Notes: generated by a model from the letters alone, not told the origin. Shown: positions 4,836 through 62,128, counted from the stretch's first letter. The stretch: DNA of 64,000 nt from Candidatus Hadarchaeota archaeon (GCA_964399085.1 CAYNPN010000003.1:7703-71702), one strand, 5' to 3'. Numbers and translations are program-made.

Positions 4836-5548
4836 CTATTCCTGGTGGAAGAGTTCTATTGATGAAATTATTTCTTCAGTTTTCCCCACCAGTATAACTT
4901 TGTCTCCTTTTTGAAAAACTGTATCTCCTCTCGGGGCGATTAGTTCTTCCTCTCGTCTAATTAGTCCTACAGTGCAAAGTTCGGGTAAGTCTAGGTCTTT
5001 AATGGCTTTCCCTTCAGCTTCGGAATTTTCCGTTACTTCAATTTCTATAACATCGCCGTCTTTTCCTCCATGCTTATCATGCCATAAAGCCCAGAACTGA
5101 CAGCAGCTTTTTCGATTAGTCCCATTGTAGCACTGATTGCACTGACCACAACATCTGCCTCAACATCCTTATACATATTCGCATATTCGTCCTTTTTTAC
5201 CCGAGCAATTACTCGACAGGACGCTGCATCTTTTGCAATCTTACAGACCATCAAATTCGTCTCGTCATTTGAGGTTAATGCAACCAATGACTCGGCTTCT
5301 TCAATCCCCGCTTCTTTTAAGATCTCCCGGTCTGTTCCATCTCCATGAACAACCATGGGTACGTCAAGTTTTTTACGGATCCTATGGGCTCTTTCCTCAT
5401 CTACTTCTATAACGGCAATTTCATGTTTTGTCCACGTCAATCGATCAGCTAGTTCTAAACCCGTCTTTCCTCCTCCAACAATAATTATCTCTTTTGTCGG
5501 AGAAGACACCTTCCCAATCAAAGATTGGGTGGGTGATGAATCCGACAC
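4836..5548 (-). pseudogene. trkA: trkA paralog split by a single-base frameshift near 5068-5070
   Basis: N-domain ORF 5045..5548 (KEIIIVGGGKTG..YGMISM) stops early. The TrkA-C domain continues in another frame to a stop at 4836-4838 (GGKDGDVIEIEVTENSEAEGKAIKDLDLPELCTVGLIRREEELIAPRGDTVFQKGDKVILVG), colinear with the TrkA at 2567-3217. Confidence 0.7.
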
Positions 5549-5876
5549 ATTTTTTTAACTTCAAAGCCGAAAGGTAGTGTAAGAAGGTGTCTTGAGCTGA
5601 CATGCCGAGTCCCGAGGACGGGGCTTCGGGGCACAGGCTCTCTTGAGAATGAATCCTCGGGAGGTTCAAGATAGGACCGTCGTGGCTCGGCCCGCAAGCT
5701 CTCCGTGTCGAATCTCGACCTCTGTACATCAAGTCGGGTTTTAGCGAGTGGGCAACCTGCAAACAAGTCCATCGGTGATGGATATAGACCGCTCGGTAGT
5801 ACCTTAACCCGACCGAAAGGGTGCGAATGGGGCTGGAAGCTCCTTCCAAACCGTGTTTGGTGGGAGAGGAAGTCAC
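5491..5876 (+). ncRNA. Element A: TnpB-less IS200/IS605-type element; candidate stand-alone omega-RNA-like structured RNA
   Basis: Left module GAGAAG..CCTTCC, hairpin cccaatc-aaa-gattggg (5513-5529), then GTGGGTGATGAATCC. Right module GAATGGGGCTGGAAGCTCCTTCC, hairpin ccaaac-cgt-gtttgg (5846-5860), then TGGGAGAGGAAGTCAC. Both modules are homologous to the ends of the tnpB element at 15911-17168. The interior is GC-rich with no convincing ORF. Confidence 0.6.
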
Positions 5877-6027
5877 CTTTGACCCATCTAAATTTTAATA
5901 TTTATCTTTGATCCACATCCCCCCACTTAATTTCCTTATTCTCTCAGAAAGGCAGATTTTCAAGAAGCCAGACAAAGACAAAACCAACTGCCCATGACCC
6001 CCTACAAAACCATGAAAAATGCCGTGA

Positions 6028-6417
6028 AAAAACTCCGACGATATACCCGAAAAAGGGGAAATCGAAACCAATTACGATAGAAAAAATACTACCGACAACA
6101 TCCAAGGAATTCACGCCCTCAAAAAACCCCTCGCCGCACTAATAAAAGCAAGCAGTCGCCGACCCAGCATCACAAAAATCAAAGTCTCTATTGAAGAAAA
6201 AGATAAAGAAACCATAGTCACAATCGAAGACAACGGAAAAAGTTCCCCGAAAAACCCAGTAAAAAATTACCAACGGACCCTAACTACCGGCGGTCCTTCT
6301 GACTCACCTGTTCTTAGGGTTCTCTGCGCCCTTCCTGTCCGGTACAGGGTACTGGCTTTCGCACCACCAGATCCCGTGTACAAGAGGTCCCGCCAAAAAG
6401 TATCTGGAGATTGTTAA
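6028..6417 (+). pseudogene. Remnant of a sensor histidine kinase ATPase (HATPase_c) domain, no start codon
   Basis: Open frame without a start codon: ..DNIQGIHALKKPLAALIKASSRRPSITKIKVSIEEKDKETIVTIEDNGKS.. resembles the N-box to G1-box (DNG) region. The G2 region downstream is degenerate. Confidence 0.3.
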
Positions 6418-6590
6418 ACTGAACGAACGAGTGCTGCGGATCTATTTCGAAAGTTCAAAAAATCAGTAATCGTCAATGCGAACTGAAAAGGGCTTTCGGT
6501 AAAAGTGCGTGAGCAGAGCTCGCCTCTCGAACATATAGGGTAATTATTTAGATTTCGGAAATCAGAAAAATAATACGGACGGGAACCAAT

Positions 6591-8390
6591 ATGACCACCG
6601 AGATCTTACTTACCCTTTTGGTTCTGTTAGCAACGATAATACTCTTCGTAGCTGAGATTGTCCGTGTAGATGTAGTGGCCATTATAGTGATGATCGTTCT
6701 CCCCTGGTTGGGGTTGGTCGATCCCGGGGAAGCTTTCTCAGGTTTCGCAAGCAACGCGGTAATTGCAATTATAGCAATTATGATTCTTGACTACGGCATC
6801 GACAGATCCGGCGTAATGGAGCAAATAACAAGACGCATTATGAATCTGGCCGGATCCAGCGAGAAAAGGCTAGTCGGGCTTGTGTCCCTCACTGTTGGAG
6901 GGCTATCATCTTTCATGCAAAATATTGGCGCCGCCGCACTCTTCCTCCCCTCAATATTGAGAATTTCCAAAAGGTTGAAGCTGTTTCCCTCCCTCTTGCT
7001 GATGCCGATGGGATTCGCGGCGATTTTAGGCGGCACATTGACTCTCTTCGCCTCGAGCCCACTTATAATGCTGAACGACCTTCTAGCTCAAGAAGGTCTC
7101 TCCTCCCTCAACGTTTTTACCGTGACTCCATTGGGGACAGTATTGCTAGGGAGTGGAGTGCTTTACTTCCTACTGCTCGGAAAGTTTGTTCTTCCTAGAA
7201 AAGAAGAAGGGGCCGTTGACCGGAGGAAGGATCATGGTGAGGACATCGAGGAGGCCTGGGAGCTGCCAGAAAATATATACGAGTGCGAAATTCCCGAAAA
7301 AAGCAATCTTATCGGCAAAACTCCCGAGGGGGTAGGGATTTGGAAAGAATACGACCTCCACCTCCTCGCTCTCGCCAAGGGTCGAGAGTTTTCCTACGCT
7401 CCCTGGCGGCACACTAAACTAGGTAAGGATCGCAAACTTCTCCTTCTCGGAAAAGAGGAAGACGTGGAAAAATTCGCAGAAGATTTCGGACTGATTCTAA
7501 GCGAAGACAGTGAAAGAATTCGAGACTTAAAAAGTGAAGAGGAGGGGGGTTTTGCAGAAGTTGTAATCCCGCCGAGAGCCCCCCTCATCGGTAAAACCTT
7601 CAGAGAGCTTGAGTTTCGAAAGGTATACAGAATCGAGCCCATAATGCTGCTGACCGGAGAACAAAAAGAGAAAGAAGACTTTTCGGATCAATCCCTCCAA
7701 CCCGGACAAGCAATCGTAGTTTTTGGCTCCTGGCGCGATTTAAAAGAGCTAGATGATAATGAAAACTTTGTTGTCGTCACACCGATAGAAACTGAAGAAG
7801 AGAAAGAAGAGAAAAAACCCGTGGTTGCAACCCTCTGCTTTACAGTCTCCATAGTCATGGCAGTCCTTGGACTTAGGCTCTCTCTATCACTCATGACTGG
7901 CGCCCTAGCAATGATACTTTTAAATATCGTTCCTATCCGAGAAGCCTACGAGGCCATCGACTGGAGAACGGTCTTCCTGATTGCCGGCCTAATACCGTTA
8001 GGCATTGCAATGGACAATACAGGCACCGCTGTGTATATATCTGAACAAGTTCTAGCAATTTTCCAAGGCAGTCACCCTATTATTATATTGACAATCCTCG
8101 CTGCCCTCACAACATCATTCACCCTAGTCATGTCGAACGTCGCAGCCACAGTCCTCCTTGTTCCAATATCCATAGCGATAGGCCAAACAACTGGGATAAA
8201 TCCAACCGCACTAGCTCTGCTCGTCGGGGTCTGTGCCTCCAACTCCTTCATACTACCCACCCACCAAGTCAACGCACTTATCATGTCGCCTGGTGGATAC
8301 AGAAACGCAGACTATATAAAAGCAGGCGGAATCTTAAGCCTCATCTTCATCGCAATAACCGTGCCGTTCACATACCTAATATTCGCTTAA
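6591..8390 (+). CDS. SLC13/DASS-family anion permease with two central TrkA-C (RCK-C) domains
   Basis: 599 aa. Hydrophobic transporter halves flank a cytoplasmic insert with two repeats (..NLIGKTPEGVGIWKEYDLHLLALAKG.. and ..PLIGKTFRELEFRKVYRIEPIMLLTG..). Confidence 0.8.
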   Translation: MTTEILLTLLVLLATIILFVAEIVRVDVVAIIVMIVLPWLGLVDPGEAFSGFASNAVIAIIAIMILDYGIDRSGVMEQITRRIMNLAGSSEKRLVGLVSLTVGGLSSFMQNIGAAALFLPSILRISKRLKLFPSLLLMPMGFAAILGGTLTLFASSPLIMLNDLLAQEGLSSLNVFTVTPLGTVLLGSGVLYFLLLGKFVLPRKEEGAVDRRKDHGEDIEEAWELPENIYECEIPEKSNLIGKTPEGVGIWKEYDLHLLALAKGREFSYAPWRHTKLGKDRKLLLLGKEEDVEKFAEDFGLILSEDSERIRDLKSEEEGGFAEVVIPPRAPLIGKTFRELEFRKVYRIEPIMLLTGEQKEKEDFSDQSLQPGQAIVVFGSWRDLKELDDNENFVVVTPIETEEEKEEKKPVVATLCFTVSIVMAVLGLRLSLSLMTGALAMILLNIVPIREAYEAIDWRTVFLIAGLIPLGIAMDNTGTAVYISEQVLAIFQGSHPIIILTILAALTTSFTLVMSNVAATVLLVPISIAIGQTTGINPTALALLVGVCASNSFILPTHQVNALIMSPGGYRNADYIKAGGILSLIFIAITVPFTYLIFA

Positions 8391-8826
8391 GTTTGTAATA
8401 TTATTCACCTGCTTGACTGGCCAATTTTTCTGCCCTCTCTAAGTGTTTTCATAACTGTAGTATATGGCCGCATTTTCCAGTGACCCTCCGGTGGCGGTGT
8501 TACGGGCGTTGACCGGGACAGTCACCCCTTCAGGGTTTGCTGATTTGCTCGATAACGAGTACGTTTCTCTTGAAAATCAGGTGGCATGCAAAGAGGGATC
8601 AAAAAAGTAAAATTAAAAATTATCTCTGATGGAAAGTTTTCGATGCAGCATATTAGTCAAAGGGAAAATACCATCGAAAATAAATTTTCAGTCACCCTCA
8701 ATAAGAGACTGAATCTGCACTTAGAGTTCAGACCAGTCCTCCACCTATAGCACCGTCTTTAATTTCACAGTTTGAGCATCGCCTTTTGTTTTTCAGGCGG
8801 GATAAGACCTTCTCGGATACCTCATT

Positions 8827-9822
8827 TCAAGAATTTTTACCGAATTTTTCCTTCATTTTCTCTATCTGCTTGGGAGACCCCATAGTTATCAAAGTATCAT
8901 CCTTCATGATCTCTTCCTCCACACTAGGATTAATGAGTAATTCGCCATCGCGCATTATTGCAATCACGGAAACGCCCGTGTCTTTCCTCAATTCCGAATC
9001 TTTGATTTTAACTCCATCTAAAAGCCCGCCTTCCGGTATGTCCAGAGTTCCTGCTTTTCCAATGTCTCCCTGCAACAAATTGTCGTAAAAAGTCGTAATT
9101 TCTGGATGTAAGAGCGATCTCGCCATGCGAATCCCTCCTTCTGTGTCCGGGCTAATAACTGCCGTCGCGCCAGCTCGATGGAGATAATCGTTGTTTTCTA
9201 TATCCTCGGCTTTGGCTACTATCTCAATATCCGACCTGATGCCCTTGGCGCTCAGAATGAGTAAAATATTATCAGGGTCGGACGGAAGAGTAGCAAATAA
9301 TCCTTGAGCCTTATCCACGCCAGCTTTTTGAAGGGCTTCTTCTCCCGTAGCATCGCCCACAATATATGGATAATCAGCTGCTTCCTCTCTCAAAACAGTC
9401 TCGTCCTGATCGATTATGACGATATCATTGCCGTAACTATGTAACTCTCGAGCTACGGCCTTACCTATATCCCCATAACCACATATAATATAGTGGTTTT
9501 TTATTTTCTCGACTTCATCTTCTTTCTCACTCATGGTAAAGAAATCCCAGATTTTCCCTCCTATAATATTTTTTCCTACGAGGGTTAAAACGTAAAGGAT
9601 TGTGCTGACTCCGAAAATCATGAGGAAGATTGCAAGGATTCTCCCCAAATCAGTATCTACAGGAATATCCCCGTAACCTACTGTTGTAATCGTAGCCACG
9701 GTCCAATATAATGAATCAAGGAGGCTTTCCCCTTCAATGAAATGAAAGCCGAAAATACCCAAAATGACTAGGGAAAAAAGAACTGAGGCTGAAATCCATA
9801 ATTTTCTATTTTCCATCATCAT
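8827..9822 (-). CDS. K+ channel with cytoplasmic RCK domain (MthK/Kch-like)
   Basis: Two TM helices and the selectivity filter TVGYGD, then a Rossmann motif (HYIICGYGDIGKAVAREL) and a TrkA-C domain. Confidence 0.85.
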   Translation of the reverse strand: MMMENRKLWISASVLFSLVILGIFGFHFIEGESLLDSLYWTVATITTVGYGDIPVDTDLGRILAIFLMIFGVSTILYVLTLVGKNIIGGKIWDFFTMSEKEDEVEKIKNHYIICGYGDIGKAVARELHSYGNDIVIIDQDETVLREEAADYPYIVGDATGEEALQKAGVDKAQGLFATLPSDPDNILLILSAKGIRSDIEIVAKAEDIENNDYLHRAGATAVISPDTEGGIRMARSLLHPEITTFYDNLLQGDIGKAGTLDIPEGGLLDGVKIKDSELRKDTGVSVIAIMRDGELLINPSVEEEIMKDDTLITMGSPKQIEKMKEKFGKNS

Positions 9823-10963: not shown

Positions 10964-11209
10964 TTACTTTAGATGTAAGCGTTTGAGGATACCTTCTGAT
11001 TTTTCCACTTTTACATCGTAGAAGTGGTGATGGTCATCCTCTACTTCGTCAAGGTTTATTACGGTTAATTCATCCGCATTCGGATCGATGTAAGTGTTTT
11101 TCTCGAATTTTTCAACGGCCTTTTCTTCGTTTTCGGCATGCACGATGCCAAAGTTGGTGATTATTGCTCTATCTTTATGAGGTTCTTCCAATATCAAAAA
11201 TTTAGACAT
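10964..11209 (-). CDS. Hypothetical small acidic protein
   Basis: 81 aa ORF with an ATG start and coding-like composition. No recognisable motif. Confidence 0.45.
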   Translation of the reverse strand: MSKFLILEEPHKDRAIITNFGIVHAENEEKAVEKFEKNTYIDPNADELTVINLDEVEDDHHHFYDVKVEKSEGILKRLHLK

Positions 11210-11289
11210 TTATTTTATTTTGGGGTACGGAACTTTGAATCGTTTTTGTTATGATTTGGCGCTGTTAAGTTAAGGTTTCCATCCATCGT

Positions 11290-11666: not shown

Positions 11667-11780
11667 ACTTATTCTACCAAGAAGCAGTCCAGTAATTATT
11701 TCCTCCGGTGTTTGTGTTCACGGATCTCCCCCACGGATCCTCCAACATTGCTCCCACTGTCATAATTTACATTCGCGCAA

Positions 11781-12009
11781 TTGCCGAGCGTCTTTTTGGT
11801 CGCAGGTCGGTTTTCGGAGATCAATCATTTTTCGAAGGGTTATGAACGGTGAAGTTTGGTGTGGGGGGAGGAATTTGAACCCACAAACCCCTAAAATACA
11901 ACGACATCGGCAGAGATACGATATCGACATGGCTGGAAGGGAATTAAACGGTTGAGTTTGGAGCCCCGGGCGGGTTCGACACCTGAGGTTCAGAGCACCC
12001 ACACATCAC
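11781..12009 (+). repeat. Degenerate relics resembling the middle and right-end modules of the element family
   Basis: tgccgagcgtc..cgcaggtc (11781-11808); tcgaag..gtttggtgtggggggaggaatttgaac (11831-11880); atggctggaaggg..aaacggttgagtttgg...catcac (11928-12009). Compare GAATGGGGCTGGAAGC..ccaaaccgtgtttggtggg..TCAC in elements A and D. Confidence 0.3.
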
Positions 12010-12079
12010 TTCGGCTTTATGACGGGGGGATGAAAGTCCCTTTTTCTTTTCTAAAAATGTGCGACTTGAACCGTAATGG

Positions 12080-12170
12080 TGGTGCGGCCGGCGGGATTTG
12101 AACCCGCGTATCGGGCTTTCCACCGGAGTGTTGGAGGGCCCGAGTCTTAGGCCAACTAGACCACGGCCGC
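12080..12170 (-). tRNA. tRNA with a ~14 nt insertion in the anticodon loop (probable intron); anticodon ambiguous (UCC/Gly or CCA/Trp are the candidates)
   Basis: Reverse complement folds as GCGGCCG-TG-GTCT/AGTTGGCCTA/AGAC-T-CGGGC[CCTCCAACACTCCGGTGGAAA]GCCCG-ATAC-GCGGG/TTCAAAT/CCCGC-CGGCCGC-A-CCA. TCCA pairs with TGGA inside the loop, giving a bulge-helix-loop-like structure. Confidence 0.8.
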
Positions 12171-12223
12171 TCTTTTCTTTTTTACCCCTAAAGGTATAAA
12201 ATGTGTTTTTAAATTTTAGTTTG

Positions 12224-15910: not shown

Positions 15911-17168
15911 TTCTTTGCCGAGAAGTCCCCTTCCTAATCTTTGATTAGGTGGGTGATGAATCGGCATTACTTTTACTCACCTCTCCCGGTAAGCGTCTAA
16001 AGTAATGGGAGGGTGAAATGAAGTGAGGTGAGGTTTGAGAGATGGGTTCAGGATGATGGTTGAAAAGACTATCGTTTGTAGGATTTTGGATCTTACCGTG
16101 AGGAAGGAGGGTCTGCTCGTCAAGGAGTACTCTAACGCTCAGGGATATATCCGTGGGGAGACGGAAGACTTGTATTCCGCTACCAAACAGGCGATGGACA
16201 GGTATGTGGAGAAGGTTCAGAACGAGGAATATCCTTTATTTTTGCGCCATGATACTTTCAAGGTGGAGAGGGCGGAAAACGCGAAAGAGTTTGACTATTG
16301 GGCTAAGATTCCTATTTCTGATGTTTGGGGTGGGGTTTGGGTTCCTATCAATCCCCACCGAGAAATTAGTGAGGATATGGATATTCACGATTCTAAAATC
16401 GTCTGGAAGGAATACGGTTTCGAACTTCACTTGTCCGTATCTTTTGAAGTATCGTCTCAAACTCCCGAATCTATCCTCTCCGTGGATTTGGGTGAAAGGG
16501 TGATGGCGACGACCGTGTCGTCCGCCGATAACGGGACCCCGGAATTCCACGGGAGAAAAGTTCGGGGGATTAGAAGGCACTACGCTTGGCTCCGAAAGAG
16601 GCTGCAGGAGAAAGGTCTAGCTAAGAAGGTTGAAGAGATCTCGGATAATGAAAAGCGGAAAGTCGAGGATATTCTACATGAGATTTCGAGGAATATAGTT
16701 GATAGAGCCGGAGAAAACAGTTCTCTAATCGTTATCGGCGATTTGAAGGGGGTGGGAAACGAGGATATGGGGAAAGGAGAGCGTATGAACCGAATAGCGA
16801 ACTCTATACCCTACTGGAAGCTGACGAGGATGATAGAATATAAGGCGAAAGAAGAAGGATTGCAGGTCGTGAAGATAAACGAGAGAAACACTTCCAAGAC
16901 CTGTCACAAGTGTGGAAGTGAAAATACTTCGAGACCGACTCAGGGAAAGTTCACCTGTAACACCTGTGGTCTCGAAGACTATAATGCTGACCTGAACGGA
17001 GCCAAGAACATTTTGCAGAGGTTTCTCGCCTATATGGTGGGGAATGGGGCTTTCGTGAACAAGCCCATAACCAAGGTGTATAGCGAAAAACACAAAGTGG
17101 AGAACCTAGAAAAATTCCTTGGAAGCTCCCTCCTAACGAGTGGAACAAGTTAGGTGGGTGCAGTTCAC
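15911..17168 (+). mobile_element. IS200/IS605-family element carrying tnpB only (IS1341-like organisation, no tnpA)
   Basis: Left hairpin cctaatc-ttt-gattagg (15933-15949) followed by GTGGGTGATGAATC. Right hairpin cctaac-N11-gttagg (17132-17154, overlapping the tnpB stop) followed by TGGGTGCAGTTCAC. The left and right hairpins resemble each other. Confidence 0.75.
16053..17153 (+). CDS. tnpB: TnpB (OrfB) RNA-guided nuclease homolog with a non-canonical RuvC-II motif
   Basis: RuvC-I SVDLGERV; zinc finger CHKCG..CNTCG; RuvC-III YNADLNGAKNI. The RuvC-II position reads IVIGDLKG (Gly codon 16737-16739) where the family normally has xxEDL. ATG taken at 16053 (the track starts at a TTG at 16035). 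Confidence 0.85.
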   Translation: MMVEKTIVCRILDLTVRKEGLLVKEYSNAQGYIRGETEDLYSATKQAMDRYVEKVQNEEYPLFLRHDTFKVERAENAKEFDYWAKIPISDVWGGVWVPINPHREISEDMDIHDSKIVWKEYGFELHLSVSFEVSSQTPESILSVDLGERVMATTVSSADNGTPEFHGRKVRGIRRHYAWLRKRLQEKGLAKKVEEISDNEKRKVEDILHEISRNIVDRAGENSSLIVIGDLKGVGNEDMGKGERMNRIANSIPYWKLTRMIEYKAKEEGLQVVKINERNTSKTCHKCGSENTSRPTQGKFTCNTCGLEDYNADLNGAKNILQRFLAYMVGNGAFVNKPITKVYSEKHKVENLEKFLGSSLLTSGTS

Positions 17169-21201: not shown

Positions 21202-21576
21202 TTAAAACTTGGTAATTCCTTTTCTTAGAGTTGATATGGATTTCTTTCTGCCAAATCGATTCTTTACCTTTGATTGATTCGGTTGCCTTATTCGACACGT
21301 CCGTGTTTTCTCCAAAAGATTCTGCCTCATAACCTCCTCAGTCAAAATCCGGTTTTCCCCACGGTTGAAAGGTTCCCCCCCGTTAACCCCCATGGGAAAC
21401 GGGCCCGTCTGCCTCAAAACTCTAAAGCATTCAAAGTTTAACTCCCCCCGAAAACTGTTCTTAATCAAATCACGTCCGTAATAGTTCACCAAGGATTTCT
21501 CAATAACGTTTTCAATCTGGTACCTAAGGTAGAAAGTGGTGCGGGCAGAGAATCTGAATTCCGGTTCGATTCGCAC
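21202..21576 (-). CDS. Hypothetical ORF that begins inside repeat copy 2; may be a gene fragment
   Basis: 124 aa. A GTG start lies directly after an in-frame stop, and the first ~15 codons are encoded by the repeat. Basic C-terminus. No recognisable domain. Confidence 0.3.
   Translation of the reverse strand: MRIEPEFRFSARTTFYLRYQIENVIEKSLVNYYGRDLIKNSFRGELNFECFRVLRQTGPFPMGVNGGEPFNRGENRILTEEVMRQNLLEKTRTCRIRQPNQSKVKNRFGRKKSISTLRKGITKF
21528..21576. repeat. Copy 2 of the ~50 nt direct repeat (see 541-590)
   Basis: ggtagaaagtggtgcgggcagagaatctgaattccggttcgattcgcac, in the same orientation as copy 1. Confidence 0.5.
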
Positions 21577-22002
21577 CTATTCCACCTTAAATGAGATCAT
21601 GTTTTCTTCAAATGGACGTCGAATCTAGCTCTAAAAAGTTCAGACTCTTGAGCTCCTTTTGACCATTTTTCCGTGAAATGAGCGATAAAAATACACGTAA
21701 ATTGAAAATAAGGCTGGAAAATTTTCGAGGCCGAGGACAGGTAAATCAAGTATGTCTTTTCATCTTCCTTAAGTAGGTTTTACTCTATATTTGTTGAAAA
21801 GAGCCCTTAATAAGGGAAAAGTTGAGGTAAAAGGTAGAAATACAGGTTAATCCAATATTAGAATACTGCAAGGTTACCGAGTTTAGATAGATTTTTTTAC
21901 ATAGATTCGGATACCTCTTATATTTTCCAATTTATCGCTAAAATTTAGAGTAGAATTAATAGCAAATCACTTTTGAATTATACTTGGGAATTTAGTAGGG
22001 TG

Positions 22003-26400: not shown

Positions 26401-26479
26401 GTTTCCGAACCCCTACTCCGAGATTTGCTTCCCCCTAAATTTTTAAATAGCTGAATTGAAATAGTTCTGGAGGTTGAAT

Positions 26480-27055
26480 ATGCCTTACTGTCCCGAGTGT
26501 GGAGAAGAGGTTGAGAAAGGGGAAAAGTTCTGCCCCAATTGTGGTGCAGAGCAATCAGCTGCTGCTGGTGGAGAAGGAACGCAAAAGGTGAGCACGCGCA
26601 ACATGAGTGATCTTCTACGTCCGGGAGTTTTGGTCGGTATTGCAGGTGTGTTGATTTTAATCGCAAGTTTCGCCCCTCTAATCGATAGCTATACGGTGGA
26701 ATACAACGATAGCACACATACTGAAGAATTTCACGTCTCGGAAGGATGGCGGATCACTCTAGGTTTATCAATAATCGGAGGTTTAGTCATGATAGGAACA
26801 GCGCTAGGCGAGTTAGGTTATATAAGTATGCCCTCCGGAATGAAATTAATATCCACCATATTCGCGCTGTGGTTGTTGATATTTTCTATCTGTCTTATCT
26901 TAGGAAAACCCGACTTAATAGCACAGGCTCAGCATACGAGTCCCGATAATACCTATATTGTTAATTGGGGATGGGGGATTTACCTCCTTATAATTGCCCC
27001 TCTTCTGGCTCTAGGTGACGCATTCCAGTCTAGCAAGTATGGACTTCCAAGTTAG
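26480..27055 (+). CDS. Zinc-ribbon membrane protein
   Basis: MPYCPECGEEVEKGEKFCPNCG, then 4-5 TM helices. Paralogous N-terminus to 28404..29036. Confidence 0.65.
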   Translation: MPYCPECGEEVEKGEKFCPNCGAEQSAAAGGEGTQKVSTRNMSDLLRPGVLVGIAGVLILIASFAPLIDSYTVEYNDSTHTEEFHVSEGWRITLGLSIIGGLVMIGTALGELGYISMPSGMKLISTIFALWLLIFSICLILGKPDLIAQAQHTSPDNTYIVNWGWGIYLLIIAPLLALGDAFQSSKYGLPS

Positions 27056-27255
27056 CAAGTCAAAATACAAGCAGCTGGTAGTTGGGCTAACGACGTAAAA
27101 ACCTGTTATAGTTTGCCAATCATACATGCTTCGGTTCAATAGGATGGAGTTCTTTCCACCTAGAAAACGCCACAAGGGGTGAGAAAACTGTGCAGGTTTG
27201 GTCATAATTTTCATCCTCTCCCCGTTTGAGAATCAGCATTCTTACTTTAACTGTA

Positions 27256-27273
27256 CCCTATTTCGAGAAATTT
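27256..27273 (+). repeat. Conserved intergenic motif, copy 1 (weaker)
   Basis: ccctatttcgagaaattt. See 28334-28360 and 29118-29144. Confidence 0.3.
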
Positions 27274-27371
27274 ATTTGAACTGATTTAAGTGCTTGAACT
27301 CTTATAACCAGATTTTTTTAAAGCCTATTGTTTATTTTTTATGAAAAGTCTCGAAGGGGGTTGAAAATTCT

Positions 27372-28208: not shown

Positions 28209-28333
28209 CGAGAGGACAGTAGTGCTCTGGGGACCGACCGATCAACAAATAGTCGTCGAAGAGGTATAACTCCGTAACTCTGCGAACTTCAGTAATAAGA
28301 TTGCTTATAGGCGAAAACAACCACTCCTTTTCG

Positions 28334-28360
28334 TTATATTTTCACCAATTTCGAGAAAGT
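28334..28360 (+). repeat. Conserved intergenic motif, copy 2
   Basis: ttatattttcaccaatttcgagaaagt; matches 29118-29144 at 25 of 27 positions. Confidence 0.4.
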
Positions 28361-28403: not shown

Positions 28404-29036
28404 TTGACGGGAGGTGAGATTATTCCTTACTGTACAGAATGTGGAGAAGAGGTAGAAGAAGGGGTCAAGTTCTGTCCGGAATGCGGAACTCTTCAAACGG
28501 AAGAGGAATCAGAAGCAAAACAGGCGCAAGGTCAAGCGGGGGAGCGCCGGCAGCCGGGTCGACGGGGACCTTCTCTGATCGATAAATTGCAGAAGTCAGA
28601 GTCAATACATTGGTTCAAGTTCAACATCGGTACCTTTCTTACAGTAGGCATCGGGTACGCTATCGCGTTCGCCTTGTTCTTTGCATTGGCGCCCGAAACG
28701 GCGACTTCGGGGATGGGTTATAGTGGGGGCTCTATTATTGCCGCCTTGGCGTTTTTCTTCGGTCTTGGTTTGGCACCGCTTTTAGCTGCCATCAACGGAA
28801 TTCGGATCGGTTCGGGTTTTCAAGACGAGGCGAATGTCGCGCTCGCAAACAGTTTCATCGGTTCCGTCATCGGGTTCCTTTTGATGACCTTCGTGCTGCT
28901 TCTCCTAATTTGGACACAGGTTGAGACCGGTGGCGGTGGGGATGTTAGTAATATACTCGGACCTATCATCGGGTTCAGCATCGGTGTTGGATTAACTGGT
29001 GCAGGCTCAACGTACCTAGCTAGAAGGAGATCCTAA
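28404..29036 (+). CDS. Zinc-ribbon membrane protein (start uncertain: TTG, or the ATT that aligns with the paralog's ATG)
   Basis: IPYCTECGEEVEEGVKFCPECG, then TM helices rich in Gly. Confidence 0.6.
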   Translation: MTGGEIIPYCTECGEEVEEGVKFCPECGTLQTEEESEAKQAQGQAGERRQPGRRGPSLIDKLQKSESIHWFKFNIGTFLTVGIGYAIAFALFFALAPETATSGMGYSGGSIIAALAFFFGLGLAPLLAAINGIRIGSGFQDEANVALANSFIGSVIGFLLMTFVLLLLIWTQVETGGGGDVSNILGPIIGFSIGVGLTGAGSTYLARRRS

Positions 29037-29117
29037 ACTCTCGCGTCAAGAATTTGTGGGCTCACTTTCAGCAAAAAGTATTGTCACCACCTCGCTCGGA
29101 GCTGGTAACACTCTTAG

Positions 29118-29144
29118 CTATATTTTCGCCAATTTCGAGAAAGT
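29118..29144 (+). repeat. Conserved intergenic motif, copy 3
   Basis: ctatattttcgccaatttcgagaaagt. Confidence 0.4.
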
Positions 29145-29472
29145 TAACAACCTATTAACTTCCAGTTTTAAGCAATATATCACGCTTTGCGTGGAAGGTT
29201 AACTTTTTTCTATATTTCCTCAAGGAGTAGGTTCCCTACCCATTATAGGCTGTCTGTTTGTTTCTTTCGGCATGTCCGATGATGGTACATCATTTTGAAA
29301 GATTAACTAACCAAAAATAGCTAGTCGAGAAACTTTCATGTTTTGGTTATACTTTACCTTTCTTTTCTCTTCTTTCAGTAAAAAAGAGAATCGAGATTCC
29401 TTATAAAATTCATTTCGTGAGTGAAACAAAAATTATACTATGTTGAGGAGATATTTCTATTCGCGATGATCT

Positions 29473-31829: not shown

Positions 31830-31927
31830 TGGTGCGGGGAGAGGGATTTGAACCCTCGACAACCGCATCTTCAGTGCGGCGCTTTTGGGCCAGGTTTATC
31901 CTGGGCTCCCAGCTGAGCTATCCCCGC
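31830..31927 (-). tRNA. tRNA-Phe (GAA) with a 22 nt non-canonical intron in the D-arm (after position 22)
   Basis: Reverse complement: GCGGGGA-TA-GCTC-AGCTGGGA-G[CCCAGGATAAACCTGGCCCAAA]AGC-G-CCGCA-CTGAAGA-TGCGG-TTGTC-GAGGG-TTCAAAT-CCCTC-TCCCCGC-A-CCA. Removing the bracketed 22 nt restores a canonical 76 nt cloverleaf. Confidence 0.85.
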
Positions 31928-31946: not shown

Positions 31947-32648
31947 TTAGATTTTATTTAGTTTTTGGTGATGCCTTTGATTTGAAAAACCGATTTCGTT
32001 TAACCACTTTTTACACATTTCATCCCCATTAATTGAAATAATATATTTAGTGTTCCATTCTTCTCTGGGAACCCACTCTCGAAATCCCACCCTAAAATTT
32101 CTATTTTCCAAAATTGCCTCTAGTTGTTCAGCGAGATTTTTGCTAGTTGTAGTTATTTCGATTGTAGGATAATCTTTACGATACCCTTTATCGCTGAAGA
32201 AGAATGAACCGTCGGAGTCAGCAATACCTCTTATACATTTACTCTTGATTTTCCAAGATGATTCGACTACATACTTCGGAATTTTTACTTTCTTGGCTTT
32301 ACCAGAACCGACAGGTATTTCTGGTTTGTCGGAAAAATATTCAAAAAGTTCCTTTGAGCAAACTCTTATTCTCAACCCCCTCTGTCTTGTTTTTGTCCTT
32401 GGGTTTCCGCTCAGCTCGTTGCAAATAATTTCTGATAAATATTGGAAATATTCTGCGTCTAAATCAGGGTCACCAGTGAGTTCAACTCTGTAATGTCTAC
32501 CGTCGGTCCAAAGATTCCCATCGCCTATTATCGCTCCCAATAGTTCCGCAATTTCTCCGTTCAGTTTCATTAGACCAGACCTATCTTGTTCATTTATAGT
32601 TGGCAGGGAGATAAAAAACGGAAAATTCGATATTTTAATACCCACCAT
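31947..32648 (-). CDS. Free-standing double-motif LAGLIDADG homing-endonuclease-like protein
   Basis: Two LAGLIDADG motifs: LLGAIIGDGN and IRGIADSDGS. Not embedded in any recognisable intron or intein host gene. Confidence 0.8.
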   Translation of the reverse strand: MVGIKISNFPFFISLPTINEQDRSGLMKLNGEIAELLGAIIGDGNLWTDGRHYRVELTGDPDLDAEYFQYLSEIICNELSGNPRTKTRQRGLRIRVCSKELFEYFSDKPEIPVGSGKAKKVKIPKYVVESSWKIKSKCIRGIADSDGSFFFSDKGYRKDYPTIEITTTSKNLAEQLEAILENRNFRVGFREWVPREEWNTKYIISINGDEMCKKWLNEIGFSNQRHHQKLNKI

Positions 32649-50372: not shown

Positions 50373-50481
50373 AGTAGTTCACACTCTTGCGAATTATCTT
50401 ATTTTTGTTTTTTCTAATTATTGTTCTGTTTTTATTTCTGAAAGGGGGAGCGATTTTTGGCCCCTTTGTCATAATTTTTTA

Positions 50482-50897
50482 TCTTTTGTATCCGGGGAAG
50501 CCACCTTCCCAATCGTGGATTGGATGGGTGATGAATCCGATATGTTTTAATTGCTCGGGCGAGAGAATGGGAATAACTGGTTCACGGCATGTCTGAAACG
50601 GGACCTCGTTCGAGTCCCCGAAGCCGAGTTCGGGGGCGTCAGGACCTCGGGGACTGGATCCCTCGTGGACTGTGAATGAGGGCACCAGTGGCAGTGCCCC
50701 GAACTCCATAGCTACGACCCGTCCTCCGGATACTCGCCTATGGCGGGAGACAAGTCGGTGAGCGGAGGAGGACCGTCAATAATGGCTATGAAGAGTCGGT
50801 GGCTCTTCACGCCACTTCCACCGGTAACACCTCGACCTCGGACTGGAAGGGTGTGAATGGGTGGAAGCTCCGTCCTTCAGGTCGGAGAGGATATCAC
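50482..50897 (+). ncRNA. Element C: TnpB-less IS200/IS605-type element; candidate stand-alone omega-RNA-like structured RNA
   Basis: GGGGAAGCCACCTTCC, hairpin cccaatc-gtg-gattgga (50508-50524), then TGGGTGATGAATCC. At the 3' end, GTGTGAATGGGTGGAAGCTCCGTCC, a variant hairpin ctccg..cggag, then AGAGGATATCAC. GC-rich interior with stems, e.g. tccccgaa/ttcggggg (50615-50636) and ggcac/gtgcc (50681-50698). Confidence 0.6.
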
Positions 50898-51112
50898 ATC
50901 CCCACCTTTTGCCCTCCGAATAATCCCATTCAAGGAATAAATAGTCGATATTATGAATAGTACTTCCGTATAACGAAAAAGAGGTTATCCCCTGAGGTTT
51001 TCGTTTTCGATGAAATTGTAAAACTCCAGTAAATCGCATTAAAAGGGAGTATTTTAACCCCCAATAGATATTTTTTTAGACTTGGACTTGATAGTAAACC
51101 AAGGAGCCCATA

Positions 51113-56248: not shown

Positions 56249-56278
56249 CATCTAAGTTAGGAAAAGAGACTTTATCCT

Positions 56279-57496: not shown

Positions 57497-57616
57497 TGCT
57501 AGACCCCAACTTAATATATCCAAAAGGCAGGCTTATCAGTTTTCGCGCGATTTCGGAGCAGTTATTTTCGAATCTAGTGAATACTTAAAAAGAGAAGACC
57601 GATTAGCTGAATACAA

Positions 57617-58159
57617 ATGGTAGAAAATAGGAAAGAAATCAGCAAGTATATGGCCTATCTCCTGCGCCATGAACCTTCGGGTTTGGACGTATCGAATGAG
57701 GGGTTCGTGGGACTATCCCCTCTCATTGATAAGCTGCGCGATAGATGGCCCGAGATAACGAAGGAAGATATCCGGGAAGTTGTTGAGAGAGATCCGAAGG
57801 GAAGATACGAGATTAAGGAAGGAAAAATTAGAGCGCGATATGGACATTCGATCGATGTTGAGCCCACTCTTAATGAGGCGACCGCGGATGTTCTCTATCA
57901 TGGTACCACATCTCAAGCGACTCAGAACATTTTGGAAGAGGGATTGAAATCGAAAGGGCGTCAGAAGGTTCACCTTTCCGCGACCGTTGAAGATGCGATG
58001 GAAGTGGGAAGGCGCAGAACGAAAAATCCCGTGATTTTGAGGATAGACGTGGGAGAAGCTCAAAGTGAGGGAACTAAAATAGAGAGGGCAAGCGATAAGG
58101 TGTTTGTTGCGGACTATATCCCTTCTAAGTTTATTTCGATAGAGTACGGGGTAGACTAA
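57617..58159 (+). CDS. kptA: RNA 2'-phosphotransferase (Tpt1/KptA)
   Basis: ISKYMAYLLRHEP, IRARYGHS, LYHGT, VHLS. Confidence 0.85.
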   Translation: MVENRKEISKYMAYLLRHEPSGLDVSNEGFVGLSPLIDKLRDRWPEITKEDIREVVERDPKGRYEIKEGKIRARYGHSIDVEPTLNEATADVLYHGTTSQATQNILEEGLKSKGRQKVHLSATVEDAMEVGRRRTKNPVILRIDVGEAQSEGTKIERASDKVFVADYIPSKFISIEYGVD

Positions 58160-58203
58160 AGTTTTCCTTAAGGAGGATTTGAGATTTTTGAGAAGATTCT
58201 AAA

Positions 58204-58395
58204 TTATTCTTCTTTCCAGGATATAGCATCGACAGGACATCCATCTATCGCCTGTTGTATTGTTTCTTCATCAGCGCCTTCAGGATCCTTAACTGATGAT
58301 TTTCCATCATCTCCTATTTCGAAAACTTCTGGAGCTATTCCTACACAGACCATATGCCCCTGACAAGTATCCTTATCTACTACAGGTTCCTTCAT
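58204..58395 (-). CDS. Small ferredoxin
   Basis: 63 aa. CQGHMVC...CP cluster ligands in a single-cluster ferredoxin layout. Confidence 0.65.
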   Translation of the reverse strand: MKEPVVDKDTCQGHMVCVGIAPEVFEIGDDGKSSVKDPEGADEETIQQAIDGCPVDAISWKEE

Positions 58396-58563
58396 AATTC
58401 GACCTCCTTGTTTTCACTTTCCTCTTAATAAATATTTAGTTCTTGCCCATTTGAGGCCATATAGAATTTCTGAAGAACGATATTAACTATCGTTATCGAG
58501 GAAGATTTAATTGAGTGCTTGTACAATCTTTAAATAGATATATTAAAGTGGAGGTGAGATTTT

Positions 58564-58947
58564 TTGACTGACCATTCTTGCAAGGACGATCTATTTTGTG
58601 GAGTGAATGTCCCTTCCACAGAGGATGTGGATGAGATGACAGCTTTGGAGAAGAAACATGCTGTGATAATCGATGCTCCGGATGAAGTTGAAGAAAACGA
58701 GCCCTTTGAAGTTGAAGTTAGAGTAGGGGAGTACAAAGAGCATCCCAATGAGCCGGGCCACTTCATAGAGTGGATGGAGCTCTATTCCGGGGATACTTTC
58801 TTAGCTCGTCTCGATTTGACTCCGGAAAAGAGCCACTACGTAATGAAAACCACTGTAAAACTGGATCACGCCCATCCGCTAAAGGCTTGGGCAAAATGTA
58901 ATCTGCATGGACTTTGGGAAGGAATGAAGGACATTGAGGTTAAATAA
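58564..58947 (+). CDS. Superoxide reductase (neelaredoxin/desulfoferrodoxin family)
   Basis: EKKHAVII, HPNEPGHFIEW, CNLHGLW iron ligands. Confidence 0.85.
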   Translation: MTDHSCKDDLFCGVNVPSTEDVDEMTALEKKHAVIIDAPDEVEENEPFEVEVRVGEYKEHPNEPGHFIEWMELYSGDTFLARLDLTPEKSHYVMKTTVKLDHAHPLKAWAKCNLHGLWEGMKDIEVK

Positions 58948-59043
58948 AAACCTCTCTTCTCTATTTTTATCAATCTCTTCTTCAGAAAAAGAATAAAAAA
59001 GAAAGATGTCGGCCTCACTAAGGTTACCTTTTAGAACATTGAG

Positions 59044-61317
59044 TTAGTAGTAAGCTTTCATCTCTTCTTTAGCTCGCTCCCCGATTTCCTTGCCGTACTT
59101 TTTCCCGAATTCTTCGTAAGTGTTGACTATGTCGTCGGTTATTGATGGACCCACTGACTTTAGAGCTTCTTCGAAGTGCTCATTCTTAATTTCATTTGTT
59201 TCGATATCTTCTCTCAGCGCCAGCATACCAGCTTCCTTGCACACAGCTGCAATATCAGCTCCACTGTATCCTTCTGTTTTGGCTGCAAGATCTTCCAGAT
59301 TGACGTCGTCCGACAATGGTGACTCTCGAGTGTGGATTTTGAAAATTTCTTCTCTGGCTTCCCCATCCGGTGCTGGTACCATCATAACACGGTCAAATCG
59401 GCCCGGTCTCAGGAGAGCCGGATCGACTAAGTCAGGCCTGTTTGTGGCTCCAATTACTACCACGTTTTCTAGCTTTTCCAGCCCGTCGATTTCCGTGAGA
59501 AGTTGGCTTATCACCCTTTCTCCTACTTGGGATCCTGAATCTCTTCTTCCTCTTTTCGGAACCATCGCGTCGATTTCGTCGAAGAAAATCACTGCCGGGG
59601 CCGCTTGTCGGGCTTTCTTGAAGGTTTCTCTTACTGCCTTTTCGGATTCACCGACCCACTTTGATAGGAGTTCAGGTCCTTTGATGGAAACGAAGTTCGA
59701 GTCGCTCTCCGTGGCTACTGCTCGAGCTAACATAGTTTTACCGGTTCCTGGAGGACCGTGAAGCATTATGCCGTGAGGTGGTTCTATTCCCAAATTTTCA
59801 AAGGCTTCGGGAGTCTTTAAGGGCCACTCAACGGCTTCCCTCAACTGCTGCTTGGAGTCTTCCAAACCTCCGATGTCGTCCCAGTGCGTATCGGGTACCT
59901 GAACCAGGACTTCCCGCATTGCTGAAGGTTCTACCTGTCCTCTTGCGCCACGGAAGTCATCTTTCGTGACTTCTAGTTTTTCCAGAGTTTCGGAGGGGAT
60001 TCTTTCTTCATCCAATTCGATTTCAGGTAGTATTTTTCTGAGTGAATTCATCGCTGCTTCTCTGGCGAGTGCGGCTAGGTCAGCGCCTACATATCCGTGG
60101 GTGTTATCGGCGAGTTCTTCCATGTCGACGTCCTCACCCATGGGCATTCCTCGAGTGTGAATCTGCAAGATTTCCTTCCTTCCGTCTCTATCGGGAACTC
60201 CTATTTCGATTTCTCTGTCAAATCTTCCCGGCCGACGCAGCGCTGGATCAACGGCATCTACACGGTTAGTTGCTGCAATGACGATTATCTTTCCACGGGC
60301 TTCTAGCCCGTCCATCAGGGATAGGAGCTGAGAAACTACACGCTGTTCGACGTCTCCTGAAACTTCCTCTCGTTTGGATGCGATTGCATCGAGTTCATCT
60401 ATGAATATTATAGAGGGTGCATTTTTCTTCGCTTCTTCGAAAATATTTCTCAACTTCTTTTCTGATTCTCCGTAGAACTTCGACATAATCTCCGGCCCGG
60501 CAATGGACTGGAAGTGTGCATCTGACTCATTTGCTACGGCTTTTGCCGTCAGAGTCTTACCCGTTCCGGGCGGTCCATGAAGTAGAACTCCTTTCGGTGG
60601 TTCAATTCCGAGCCTATCGAAAAGCTCCGGATGTCTGAGAGGAAGCTCCACCATCTCTCGAACTCGTTGAATCTCTTTGTTTAGCCCTCCGATGTCTTCG
60701 TAGGTTATAGCTGGGGCAGAGGCTTCTTCTATGTCAGCGGCCTGTGAAGAGACGTTCAGATTTGTGCCTTTTGTGACTAGGACTATATCATCAGGTTCGG
60801 CATTTGTAACTACGAATCTTAATTCACCTAGTCCAAAAGACGATGAAGGTGTCATTTCCTGAAACATTCCACCAAAGATTTGCGAGAAGATGTCACCTTG
60901 GAGTCCTGTGGGGGAAATGATATCTCCCTTTGAAGCCGGTCTTCCAATTAGACTCCGTTTAAGCGCACGCCCACCACCACGAATTTGGATATTTTGATCG
61001 GTGGGAGCAATAGTAATTCTTTCGGCTTCTTTCACGTCTGCCTCACGGACTTCGACTTTTTCACCAATAGAGGTACCAGTGTTACGGCGTTCCAGACCGT
61101 CGAGCCTTATTATATCCAGACCCTCGTCTTCTCTATAGCTCGATCTAACGATAGCAGCCGATTTTTTAGTGCCCTCTACTTCGATGATGTCTCCTTGTTT
61201 TACTCCTAGTTCCTTCATGGCTTCCCTGCTAATTCTTGCAACACTTCTGCCGACATCTTGTTGTCTACGTGCTTCTGCAACTGTCAATTCGATTTCTTTT
61301 TTTCCTTCGGTTGGCAA
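59044..61317 (-). CDS. cdc48: CDC48/VAT AAA+ ATPase
   Basis: N-domain, then two AAA modules (GPPGTGKT twice, IIFIDELD / [11 protein letters not shown] regions). Confidence 0.92.
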
Positions 61318-61364
61318 TATTTCTCACCAAGATAAGATATATTTTTAATAACCTTATAAAGTTT

Positions 61365-61382
61365 TTGTTGTATATACAACAA
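61365..61382. promoter_or_regulatory. Perfect 18 bp palindrome with a TATA core upstream of cdc48
   Basis: TTGTTGTATATACAACAA, 48-65 nt upstream of the cdc48 start. Confidence 0.4.
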
Positions 61383-61386
61383 ATAT

Positions 61387-61659
61387 CTACTTTTCTCTTT
61401 TTACCACGAATTTTTTCCACTTCAGATGTGAATCATATTTTTTGAATATCCTTTCTACCTTTTTGGCGTGATCCTTGTCAATTAACAAGGCGCTCCGGTT
61501 CACGAAGTCCCAAACGTCTTTAGGTATTTCGTCTAAGATTCCATCCGTGTGTTTTTTCCCCGATTTAGTCTTATAATCATAACCCCGAAGCTCCCTATAG
61601 AATAAAGTTGCTTTCGATCCTTTCGTCTTTATGTCCCATAGTAGAAGTACCCTTTCCAT
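61387..61659 (-). CDS. Small lysine-rich hypothetical protein (possibly nucleic-acid binding)
   Basis: MERVLLLWDIKTKGSKATLFYRELRGYDYK.. is 90 aa. Start taken at MERV because the upstream part of the track ORF is encoded by promoter-like repeats. Confidence 0.5.
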   Translation of the reverse strand: MERVLLLWDIKTKGSKATLFYRELRGYDYKTKSGKKHTDGILDEIPKDVWDFVNRSALLIDKDHAKKVERIFKKYDSHLKWKKFVVKREK

Positions 61660-61670
61660 TTTTCTGTTAA

Positions 61671-61688
61671 TTGTTGTATATATAACAA
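61671..61688. promoter_or_regulatory. 18-mer TTGTTGTATATATAACAA, copy 1
   Basis: 12-29 nt upstream of the MERV start codon (minus strand). TATA-like core. Confidence 0.4.
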
Positions 61689-61707
61689 GATTTAAAAATT
61701 TCCCCGG

Positions 61708-61725
61708 TTGTTGTATATATAACAA
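61708..61725. promoter_or_regulatory. 18-mer TTGTTGTATATATAACAA, copy 2 (identical)
   Basis: Lies just upstream of the left end of element D on the plus strand. Confidence 0.4.
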
Positions 61726-61730
61726 TTAAC

Positions 61731-62128
61731 CTTTTTATCGAGAAGTCTCCTTCCCAATTTTGATCGGGTAGGTGATGAATCGATACTTTTTTTGTTGATA
61801 ATGGATATTTTGGAAGGTAGAGAGGTTCCGAGTCTATATGCCGAGTTCGAACAGCCGAGTGTTCGAGCGTCAGGCTCTTCCGCAATAGATACGTGGGAGG
61901 GTTCGGAACGGGGTTCCAGTGACCGAACCCATAACTCGGGCGGAAGATAGTTACGGACAGATAGTAGTGGATGTCCCGAAAAGCAGTGCAAGTCCCGGGA
62001 ACCTGCAAGGAGTGGCGAACCGTGTTCGCCTGAGAGACCGCCGTGTAGCGGGGCACTAATCTCGGATGTCGGTCTCGTGAATGGGTGGAAGCACCTTCCA
62101 AATGAAATTTGGTGGGTGAGGAGGTCAC
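61731..62128 (+). ncRNA. Element D: TnpB-less IS200/IS605-type element; candidate stand-alone omega-RNA-like structured RNA
   Basis: GAGAAGTCTCCTTCC, hairpin cccaat-tttg-atcggg, then TAGGTGATGAATCG. At the 3' end, GTGAATGGGTGGAAGCACCTTCC, hairpin ccaaat-gaa-atttgg, then TGGGTGAGGAGGTCAC. Interior stem ttcgaac/gttcgag (61856-61877). Confidence 0.6.

Follow-up and report, generated by a model that had tools for sequence, protein, structure and literature searches.

What are the short, gene-less companions of a tnpB element in an archaeal genome, and what do they carry? We analyzed a 64,000-nt stretch of DNA from Candidatus Hadarchaeota archaeon (GCA_964399085.1, CAYNPN010000003.1:7703-71702), which we refer to as the window. 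It contains one tnpB-bearing element, T, and three elements, A, C, and D, that have the same kind of ends and no convincing open reading frame (ORF). We consider it very probable that A, C, and D belong to the IS200/IS605 family as non-autonomous elements. (IS200/IS605 elements without ORFs are known as PATEs, and they often encode omega RNAs for use in trans; PMC10055086.) As to their cargo, we lean, on balance, towards an HgcC-like, stand-alone omega-type RNA that is carried by mobile elements and used in trans.

The window has a GC content of 44.8%, tRNA genes with introns, and archaeal-type genes such as CDC48, NurA/HerA, a TIP49-like gene, and Trk. Its proteins are matched exactly in fragmented metagenome-assembled genomes and in Logan assemblies (GCA_905333355.1 and relatives; runs ERR54146xx/ERR54147xx).

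The elements and their ends

A repeat finder placed the left ends of A, T, C, and D in one family. The window has exactly four occurrences of the motif GGTGATGAATC, all of them on the plus strand and one per locus, and reading and aligning the loci confirmed the common end architecture that a preliminary description of this DNA had reported. We set the boundaries of the elements by the conserved TTAWC in the left flank and by the restored start of trkA (see below). This left T and D as first described and moved the start of A from 5491 to 5490 and that of C from 50482 to 50484. The elements, with two partial copies from outside the window, are:

5490..5876 (+): element A, ORF-less, PATE-like, IS200/IS605-type, 387 nt; target TTATC (5485-5489), at codon 4 of trkA-N (gene on the minus strand)
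15911..17168 (+): element T, IS1341-type (tnpB-only) IS200/IS605 element, 3' of TTTAAC, with terminus GTTCAC
50484..50897 (+): element C, ORF-less, 414 nt, 3' of TTATC (50479-50483)
61731..62128 (+): element D, ORF-less, 398 nt, 3' of TTAAC (61726-61730); a DUF1893 gene lies 48 nt downstream
L092:5096-5188 (the window's + strand): partial copy E, about 5 kb past D
L095:11057-11154 (minus strand of a reversed locus, which is the window's +): partial copy F, ending about 7.7 kb ahead of the window's start

The interior of copy E is like that of C, and both sides of the distal stem in E's left-end hairpin are changed. Copy F has a C-like 3' domain and a long right-end hairpin. We also found a strain variant of element C (L090).

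We searched more widely as well. The exact left-end pattern (GAAG-N4-CCTTCC-N12-20-GGTGATGAATC) had only chance matches in collections of genome and metagenome contigs, mostly in genes for cold-shock proteins; a looser version of the pattern had only chance matches in viral contigs; and plasmids and phages had no blastn match to A or D. Evidently, either the lineage is missing from the scanned contig collections or the left-end bases differ there.

Each left end (LE) begins with G(A/G)GAAG, followed by the hairpin CCUUCCYAAUC-loop-GAUYRGGUGGG (11-12 bp with one U.U mismatch) and then UGAUGAAUC. At each right end (RE), UGGAAGC is followed by a hairpin like that of the LE and a tail of 10-12 nt. 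The tail reads GAGGARGUCAC in A, C, and D versus YRCAGUUCAC in T, so that its terminus is (G/A)UCAC in the former and GUUCAC in the latter. The hairpins at the ends of A, C, D, T, E, and F, and of relatives, belong to one type (CCUUCC..../....GGUGGG, with one mismatch). Because these hairpins are imperfect, subterminal, and on the same strand, without terminal inverted repeats, they have the form that defines IS200/IS605 ends. The preliminary description had recognized them as such. It gave the hairpins too short, however. The right hairpin of C is not of the long type but a short form with an 8-bp stem and a UUCA loop (CTCCGTCC-TTCA-GGTCGGAG, 50868-50887). The other ends that we refer to are:

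5509..5533 (+): left-end hairpin of A, CCTTCCCAATC-AAA-GATTGGGTGGG with a T.T mismatch, followed by TGATGAATC
5840..5876 (+): right end of A, a 12-bp hairpin (5840-5866) and a 10-nt tail, AGGAAGTCAC; the element stops at 5876
62092..62128 (+): right end of D, a hairpin (62092-62118) and the tail AGGAGGTCAC

In the IS608 paradigm, the target motif adjoins the LE, and the element ends about 10 nt past the foot of the RE hairpin. Here, the motif directly 5' of the LE is TTATC for A, C, and E and TTAAC for D. Read with one more base, the flank of one ORF-less copy is TTTATC. TTTAAC precedes T as well as the T-type relatives in L028, L029, and L088, whose end is as in T. The flanks upstream of TTAWC are unrelated between copies. 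The cleavage end at the RE lies 10-12 nt past the hairpin foot, which matches the geometry of IS608. On geometry alone, the conserved structure of A, C, and D reaches the end of the RE, (G/A)TCAC, and the adjoining flanks are unique.

Element A inserted into trkA

Is there direct evidence that these elements move? Next to element A, we found a broken gene:

5045..5489 (-): trkA remnant, interrupted by A; its TrkA-N domain begins at the junction, and the TrkA-C half of its orthologs is missing

The remnant encodes 147 amino acids with TrkA-N only, while its orthologs have about 218 amino acids and include TrkA-C. The TrkA-N frame lacks its own start, as the N terminus runs into A's left end. 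When we deleted 5490-5876 in silico, the flanks joined as ...TTATC|CTTTGA..., without duplicated bases at the junction. On the strand of the gene, the result is ATGGGTCAAAG|GATAATTATTGTTGGAGGAGG (also written ATGGGTCAAAG|GATAATTATT), which translates to MGQRIIIVGGGKTG. This is a normal TrkA-N start, with an AT-rich stretch before it. (Orthologs of trkA begin with MD(I/M)IIVGGG.) Also, an orthologous locus (L094) is uninterrupted at the site of A: TTTTTAGATATGGACATAATTATTGTTGGAGGAGGA. The restored start and the intact ortholog prove that element A is an insertion. It lies 3' of a short motif and has no target-site duplication, as is characteristic of the IS200/IS605 family.

Other evidence comes from orientation and from assemblies. 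All six copies (A, C, D, T, E, and F) are in one orientation, in a region where GC skew rises steadily. This orientation would fit insertion of the top strand into the lagging-strand template. Public short-read contigs break inside T, C, D, E, and F, and for D every one of them breaks within its 3' part. The element family accounts for the fragmentation of short-read assemblies at these sites.

The surroundings of A include two further mobile-looking features. An ORF for an IS4-like DDE transposase (PF01609; 3530-4462, plus strand) adjoins the 3'-truncated trkA. Public contigs break at about 3408, just ahead of this ORF, so that insertion sequence (IS) is probably repeated too. There is also a direct repeat of 16 nt, TGGTGCGGCCGGCGGG, at 12073-12108 and 542-577; it corresponds to the 3' end of an intron-containing tRNA-Trp gene (12083-12170, minus strand). 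These look like the remnants of att sites around a segment of about 11.5 kb that holds the IS together with the broken trkA and element A.

Element D, for its part, inserted directly beside a repeated palindrome. Three near-perfect copies of TTGTTGTATATA(C/T)AACAA (61365-61385, 61671-61691, and 61708-61728) surround an ORF of 112 amino acids (61387-61725, minus strand; no Pfam match), and D adjoins the third of these palindromes. In form, they resemble an operator at which a small regulator would act.

The interiors are non-coding and structured

We then examined the interiors of A, C, and D. None of their plus-strand ORFs exceeds 69 amino acids or is conserved, which agrees with the earlier judgment that they have no convincing ORF. 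In A and D, the minus strand has long ORFs; these share only the translation of the conserved ends. When the antisense ORFs of all three elements were translated, they had no match in protein collections. We rejected the idea that the minus strand encodes a small protein, as the translations are unrelated outside the conserved ends. With no protein gene between their ends, A, C, and D fit the definition of PATEs.

Could A, C, and D be decayed or internally deleted copies of a tnpB element? They do have both ends and a GGUG.GAAUGGGG motif in common with T. But when the TnpB protein was compared to the window with tblastn, at E values up to 100, it matched its own gene only, with no remnant in A, C, or D. 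(This bears out the earlier statement that only T has tnpB.) In blastn comparisons with T, the similarity is confined to ~65 nt at the start and ~20-40 nt at the end; over all four elements, the common stretches amount to about 65 nt on the left and about 40-60 nt on the right. The interiors are instead homologous to each other (65% identity over 178 nt for A and D, and 62% over 226 nt for C and D by blastn), and they are GC-rich, at 54-59% versus 44.8% for the window. (Element T overall has 46.7%.) They have also been kept by compensatory changes, as described next. The idea that they are pseudogenes is already contradicted by these results, and we consider it extremely improbable.

The plus strands of A, C, and D fold into structures that are 10-25 kcal/mol more stable than those of their reverse complements. 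Compared to shuffled sequences, their z-scores are -4.1, -3.5, and -1.0, while those of the minus strands are about 0. Within each interior lies a core domain:

5604..5701 (+): core domain of A, 98 nt, with P4 (9 bp), a variable P5, and P6 (6 bp), flanked by GAGU and (A/G)CUC
50609..50706 (+): core domain of C, 98 nt, with P4, P5, and P6
61840..61937 (+): core domain of D, 98 nt, with P4, P5, and P6

The three cores have identical lengths, and their alignment needs one indel. In P4, all 9 bp are paired in every copy, and 6 of the pairs are changed on both sides. For P4 and P6 together, pairing is 97.8%, and 9 of the 15 pairs are changed on both sides. None of 500 shuffles reached these values, and sliding the partners by 1-3 columns reduced the pairing to 16-58%. 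The preliminary description's claim of an interior stem with compensatory changes therefore holds, for a 9-bp helix and likewise for a 6-bp hairpin. The GCCGAG loop that it considered common to all three is present in C and D, but the loop of A is ACGGGG. Each copy also has a hairpin, P5, between P4 and P6, in a register that differs from copy to copy. Pairing of GAGU with (A/G)CUC, motifs that do not vary between the copies, could close the core domain.

We report only those helices whose columns are aligned unambiguously. With three sequences, the central ~120 nt is not reliably alignable, and RNAalifold was unstable there, with both MAFFT and structure-profile alignments. We dropped possible long-range pairings (between the LE and RE tails, and between CUUCC and GGAAG) because their positions are inconsistent between copies; one such candidate is also weakened by a substitution in the strain variant of C. 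We also rejected a box C/D K-turn (GUGAUGA with UGAA), which lacks flanking complementarity and whose motif is present in T as well. Overall, the comparison shows selection on top-strand structure in A, C, and D, of a kind that does not separate RNA from single-stranded DNA.

A probable distant relationship to HgcC

At Rfam's gathering thresholds, the window contains three tRNAs only. At lower scores, one other match stands out:

50678..50910 (+): HgcC-like match (RF00062), over the whole 130-position model, including the RE hairpin of C (50868-50887) and its tail

The match has 27.9 bits and an E value of 1e-4, and this is under the gathering score of 50 at which a sequence counts as a member of the family. 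(The scan by E value gave nothing meaningful for T. We also considered, and rejected, an IStron or group I intron and an IscB-type (HEARO) omega RNA, as neither had an Rfam signal.)

Like HgcC, C has a 3' GGAA(G/C), then an 8-bp hairpin with a UUCA/UUUA loop, and then GAGGAGGUCA. In C, this feature reads CUCCGUCC-UUCA-GGUCGGAG, followed by AGGAUAUCAC. In the alignment of the 3' ends, the HgcC consensus ...GGaaCCccCGcccUUuAgggCGggGAGGAGGUCAG stands against GGAAGCUCCGUCCUUCAGGUCGGAGAGGAUAUCAC, and the consensus ...CCccCGcccUUuAgggCGggGAGGAGGUCAG corresponds to the RE hairpin with the GAGGAGGUCAC tail. A and D keep the base of the stem and the tail of this HgcC-type end, with the hairpin extended to 12 bp. 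Similarly, the GAGGA(R)GUCAC tail of A, C, D, and F is that of HgcC and not that of T. The alignment of C continues through the model to the first HgcC hairpin, with its CAGUGRC-type loop, which is matched by the P6 hairpin of C. And like HgcC, these elements are high-GC intergenic sequences in an archaeal genome of lower GC content. There are also differences: the elements are three times longer, with insertions of 31 and 87 nt relative to the model and an extra 5' part that includes the LE hairpin. We think it likely that the A, C, and D RNAs are distantly related to HgcC.

HgcC is itself part of a wider group. An RE-like tetraloop is common to the 3' sense-overlapping RNAs (sotRNAs) of IS1341-type tnpB genes, to HgcC, to two small RNAs of P. 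abyssi, and to a PATE-derived RNA of Halobacterium (Gomes-Filho et al. 2015, PMC4615843). The sotRNAs and the P. abyssi RNAs sRK48 and sRK52 can be grouped with HgcC as near systems.

Does the structure act as RNA at all? The hairpins might instead serve the single-stranded DNA intermediate of transposition, or the interior might be neutral stuffer, in which case these would be selfish MITE/PATE repeats. Transposition of IS200/IS605 elements does use top-strand DNA hairpins, G.T wobble is tolerated in DNA, and insertion into the lagging-strand template is expected to give all copies a single orientation. But TnpA, as far as its recognition is known, requires the subterminal hairpins only and not an interior of ~300 nt. 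Furthermore, the GC enrichment and the compensatory changes are found in interior helices that are far from the ends, and transcripts of the related HgcC, sotRNA, and VNG_R0052 have been detected experimentally (PMC4615843). We judge it rather unlikely that the elements have no RNA function.

Element T and its TnpB

If the A, C, and D RNAs are omega-type, one nuclease to consider is the TnpB of element T:

16053..17153 (+): tnpB, 366 amino acids from ATG, with the RuvC D/E/D motifs and the zinc finger intact
17028..17168 (+): T-type omega-RNA-like 3' region, with the GGUGGGGAAUGGGG motif, helices Ha and Hb, the RE hairpin, and the tail GCAGTTCAC

This protein matches PF07282 with 76.3 bits (the cut-off is 26.3), and its VDLGE, IEYKA, and NADLN motifs and CxxC...CxxC align to a solved Cas12f/TnpB chain. 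We found 720 homologs. The nearest named relatives are from an MSBL1 single-cell genome and from archaeon SCG-AAA382B04; that of Nanohalobium has 55% identity. Judging by these motifs, the TnpB of T looks active. As the preliminary description stated, the right hairpin of T overlaps the end of the gene: the stop codon, TAG (17151-17153), is in the hairpin's 3' arm.

We compared five T-type 3' regions (that of T, one from L028, two from L029, and one from L088). Their nucleotide conservation exceeds what the protein needs. They have helices Ha (GGGGCU/AGCCC) and Hb in common, and Hb covaries, from CCAAGG/CCUUGG to CAGAGG/CCUCGG and CCGAAG/CUUCGG. A second T-type right end, at the end of a contig from SCG-AAA382B04 (L029:1-111), has a different RE hairpin (CCCCTCGGC-TCT-GCCGAGTGGG); its Ha and Hb covary (GGGCCU/AGGCC and CCGAAG/CUUCGG), and it is useful for modelling the T-type omega RNA.

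Are the putative RNAs guides?

We propose that A, C, D, E, and F are non-autonomous, PATE-like relatives of the IS1341-type element T. A Y1 TnpA that is encoded elsewhere would use the top-strand LE and RE hairpins to excise the element as a single strand and insert it 3' of TTAWC. (We infer this step from the known mechanism of IS608.) The cargo would be the GC-rich plus-strand structure of ~300 nt, a distant relative of archaeal HgcC and of other RE-hairpin RNAs. A transcript that runs through the right end into the flank would supply a guide for a TnpB made elsewhere. After excision, that TnpB would cut the empty site (TTAWC and the right flank), and recombination would restore the element.

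Several observations bear on this proposal. The RE hairpin and two motifs, GGAAGC and GGUG.GAAUGGGG, are common to A, C, D, and the scaffold of T, but the helices and the tail are not (see below). Their RE hairpin and tail match the 3' end of HgcC, and reading them as guide RNAs, as was first suggested, remains the most economical interpretation. (The accompanying claim of novelty does not stand; see below.)

Other results weigh against it. First, A and D had no match to RF00062, even at E <= 10. Only C matched, below the cut-off, so the Rfam comparison that had been suggested for these elements found an HgcC-like stretch from interior to RE in C alone. Plausibly, A and D are missed because their RE hairpin is extended. 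Second, the covariation comes from three full copies only, and single-stranded DNA hairpins explain it equally well. Third, a tblastn search with an IS608 TnpA sequence as the query found no tnpA in the 64-kb window. Fourth, contigs around relatives of TnpB and of the window's genes yielded T-type elements and the two partial ORF-less copies, and no new complete ORF-less copy. Finally, apart from GGUG.GAAUGGGG and the RE hairpin, the interiors of A, C, and D are unrelated to the 3' region of T's tnpB. In A, C, and D, GGGUGYGAAUGGG(GC)U runs straight into GGAAGC, so they have neither Ha nor Hb. As the RE tails differ too, it is not assured that the TnpB of T uses these RNAs.

To judge from these sequence differences, T's TnpB is a doubtful partner. 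It could still read the A, C, and D RNAs; alternatively, they could belong to another lineage of TnpB that this genome encodes elsewhere, or have a different role. We also searched the window for sequences that resemble the flanks 3' of the elements, as potential guides. The sole near match was between the flank of D and 887-902 (14 of 16 bases, CCAACCACATTCGTAA against CAAACCACATTCTTAA), with no TTAWC beside it. It is probably due to chance, as about 0.03 such matches are expected per guide.

What might another role be? One alternative is that the elements are mobile and that their RNA is a regulatory or structural non-coding RNA of the HgcC type, apart from TnpB guidance and merely spread by the IS ends. 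The function of HgcC is described as unknown, and overexpression of the PATE-derived RNA altered the growth of Halobacterium (PMC4615843). Also, the 98-nt P4-P6 core has no counterpart in T-type 3' regions, and the interiors have diverged to ~62-65% identity yet kept their structure. On the other hand, the RNA has as its exact terminus the kind of RE by which omega RNAs are defined, such RNAs are already an established class in stand-alone form, and the sequence suggests no target or partner. (Besides the D flank, the window holds no credible match to the guide-like flanks.) We consider this alternative unlikely, though it deserves to be taken seriously. A related idea is that the RNAs of 390-415 nt form a distinct class that has hijacked the IS200/IS605 ends: P4-P6 and the HgcC-like 3' domain would scaffold some other partner, or the RNA would have a catalytic or regulatory activity of its own. 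This idea seems to us improbable.

Comparison to known systems

We return to omega-type RNAs that are used in trans, the interpretation that we favor. The preliminary description suggested that this organization was undescribed. This is incorrect, because both PATEs that lack ORFs and encode guides (PMC10055086) and omega RNAs that act in trans have been published. In particular, effector-less stand-alone omega RNAs that are mobilized, and that work in trans with compatible effectors, are known (Altae-Tran et al. 2023, PMC10691335, which summarizes Altae-Tran et al. 2021 on OMEGA systems), as are PATE and HgcC RNAs with RE hairpins (PMC4615843). A, C, and D are a fresh example of a described kind and not a new principle.

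PATEs have been named from Haloquadratum, Halobacterium (VNG_R0052), Geobacillus, and Clostridioides; they are presumably mobilized in trans, and some are transcribed. In common with PATEs, A, C, and D occur in several copies, encode no protein, and are bounded by LE and RE hairpins like those of a tnpB element in the same genome. But the haloarchaeal VNG_R0052 is a short fusion of LE and RE, 99 nt long, whereas A, C, and D carry ~300 nt of conserved, structured, GC-rich interior that does not derive from the resident tnpB.

Like the stand-alone omega RNAs, A, C, and D are effector-less, mobilized modules in a genome that also has effector-bearing loci, and the guide would be the flank of the end. 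They differ in that their scaffold lacks Ha and Hb and that their RE tail is not that of T. Element T itself is one of the IS1341-type tnpB elements (ISDra2-like TnpB systems), with typical ends, a target motif at the LE, and an RE over the tnpB stop codon; A, C, and D differ from such elements in having no tnpB and a scaffold that is not T-type.

Other features of the window

We noticed several further features. At 11853-11885 (minus strand), about 200 nt from tRNA-Trp, is an isolated sequence that resembles the 3' half of a tRNA, GTGGGTTCAAATTCCTCCCCCCACACCA, with CCA encoded. Neither ARAGORN nor Rfam calls it, and it could be a tRNA fragment or half of a split tRNA. A 31-nt repeat with 87% identity (ATCTGCATTCCGGTTCGAATCGCACTTTTTC) is found at 566-596 and 21552-21582 and includes a T-loop-like GGTTCGAAT.

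A tRNA gene at 31833-31927 (minus strand) is found by Rfam and not by ARAGORN, and it has a 25-nt insertion in the region of the D loop. Just upstream of it, at 31947-32648 (minus strand), an ORF of 233 amino acids has LAGLIDADG-like motifs (GDGNLW and ADSDGSF) and is a possible homing endonuclease.

Finally, segments that encode zinc ribbons are duplicated at 26476-26544 and 28418-28486, with 78% identity, and an upstream motif, ...CCAATTTCGAGAAAGT, recurs at 27237-27274, 28327-28360, and 29109-29146. Together, these suggest a small tandem gene family with a common promoter or operator.

Implications

Should A, C, and D prove to be stand-alone omega RNAs, this class would extend to an uncultured, brine-type archaeal lineage. 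HgcC, an RNA family that has had no known function since 2002, would also be linked more closely to the right ends of IS200/IS605 elements and to RNAs that act as guides. Their scaffold differs from that of the one TnpB nearby, which raises a concrete, testable question about the compatibility of effectors and guides, and a large scaffold that looks thermostable could be of interest for engineering TnpB. If the RNAs are a distinct class instead, then the orphan HgcC family would gain the context of a mobile element and a function that can be tested.

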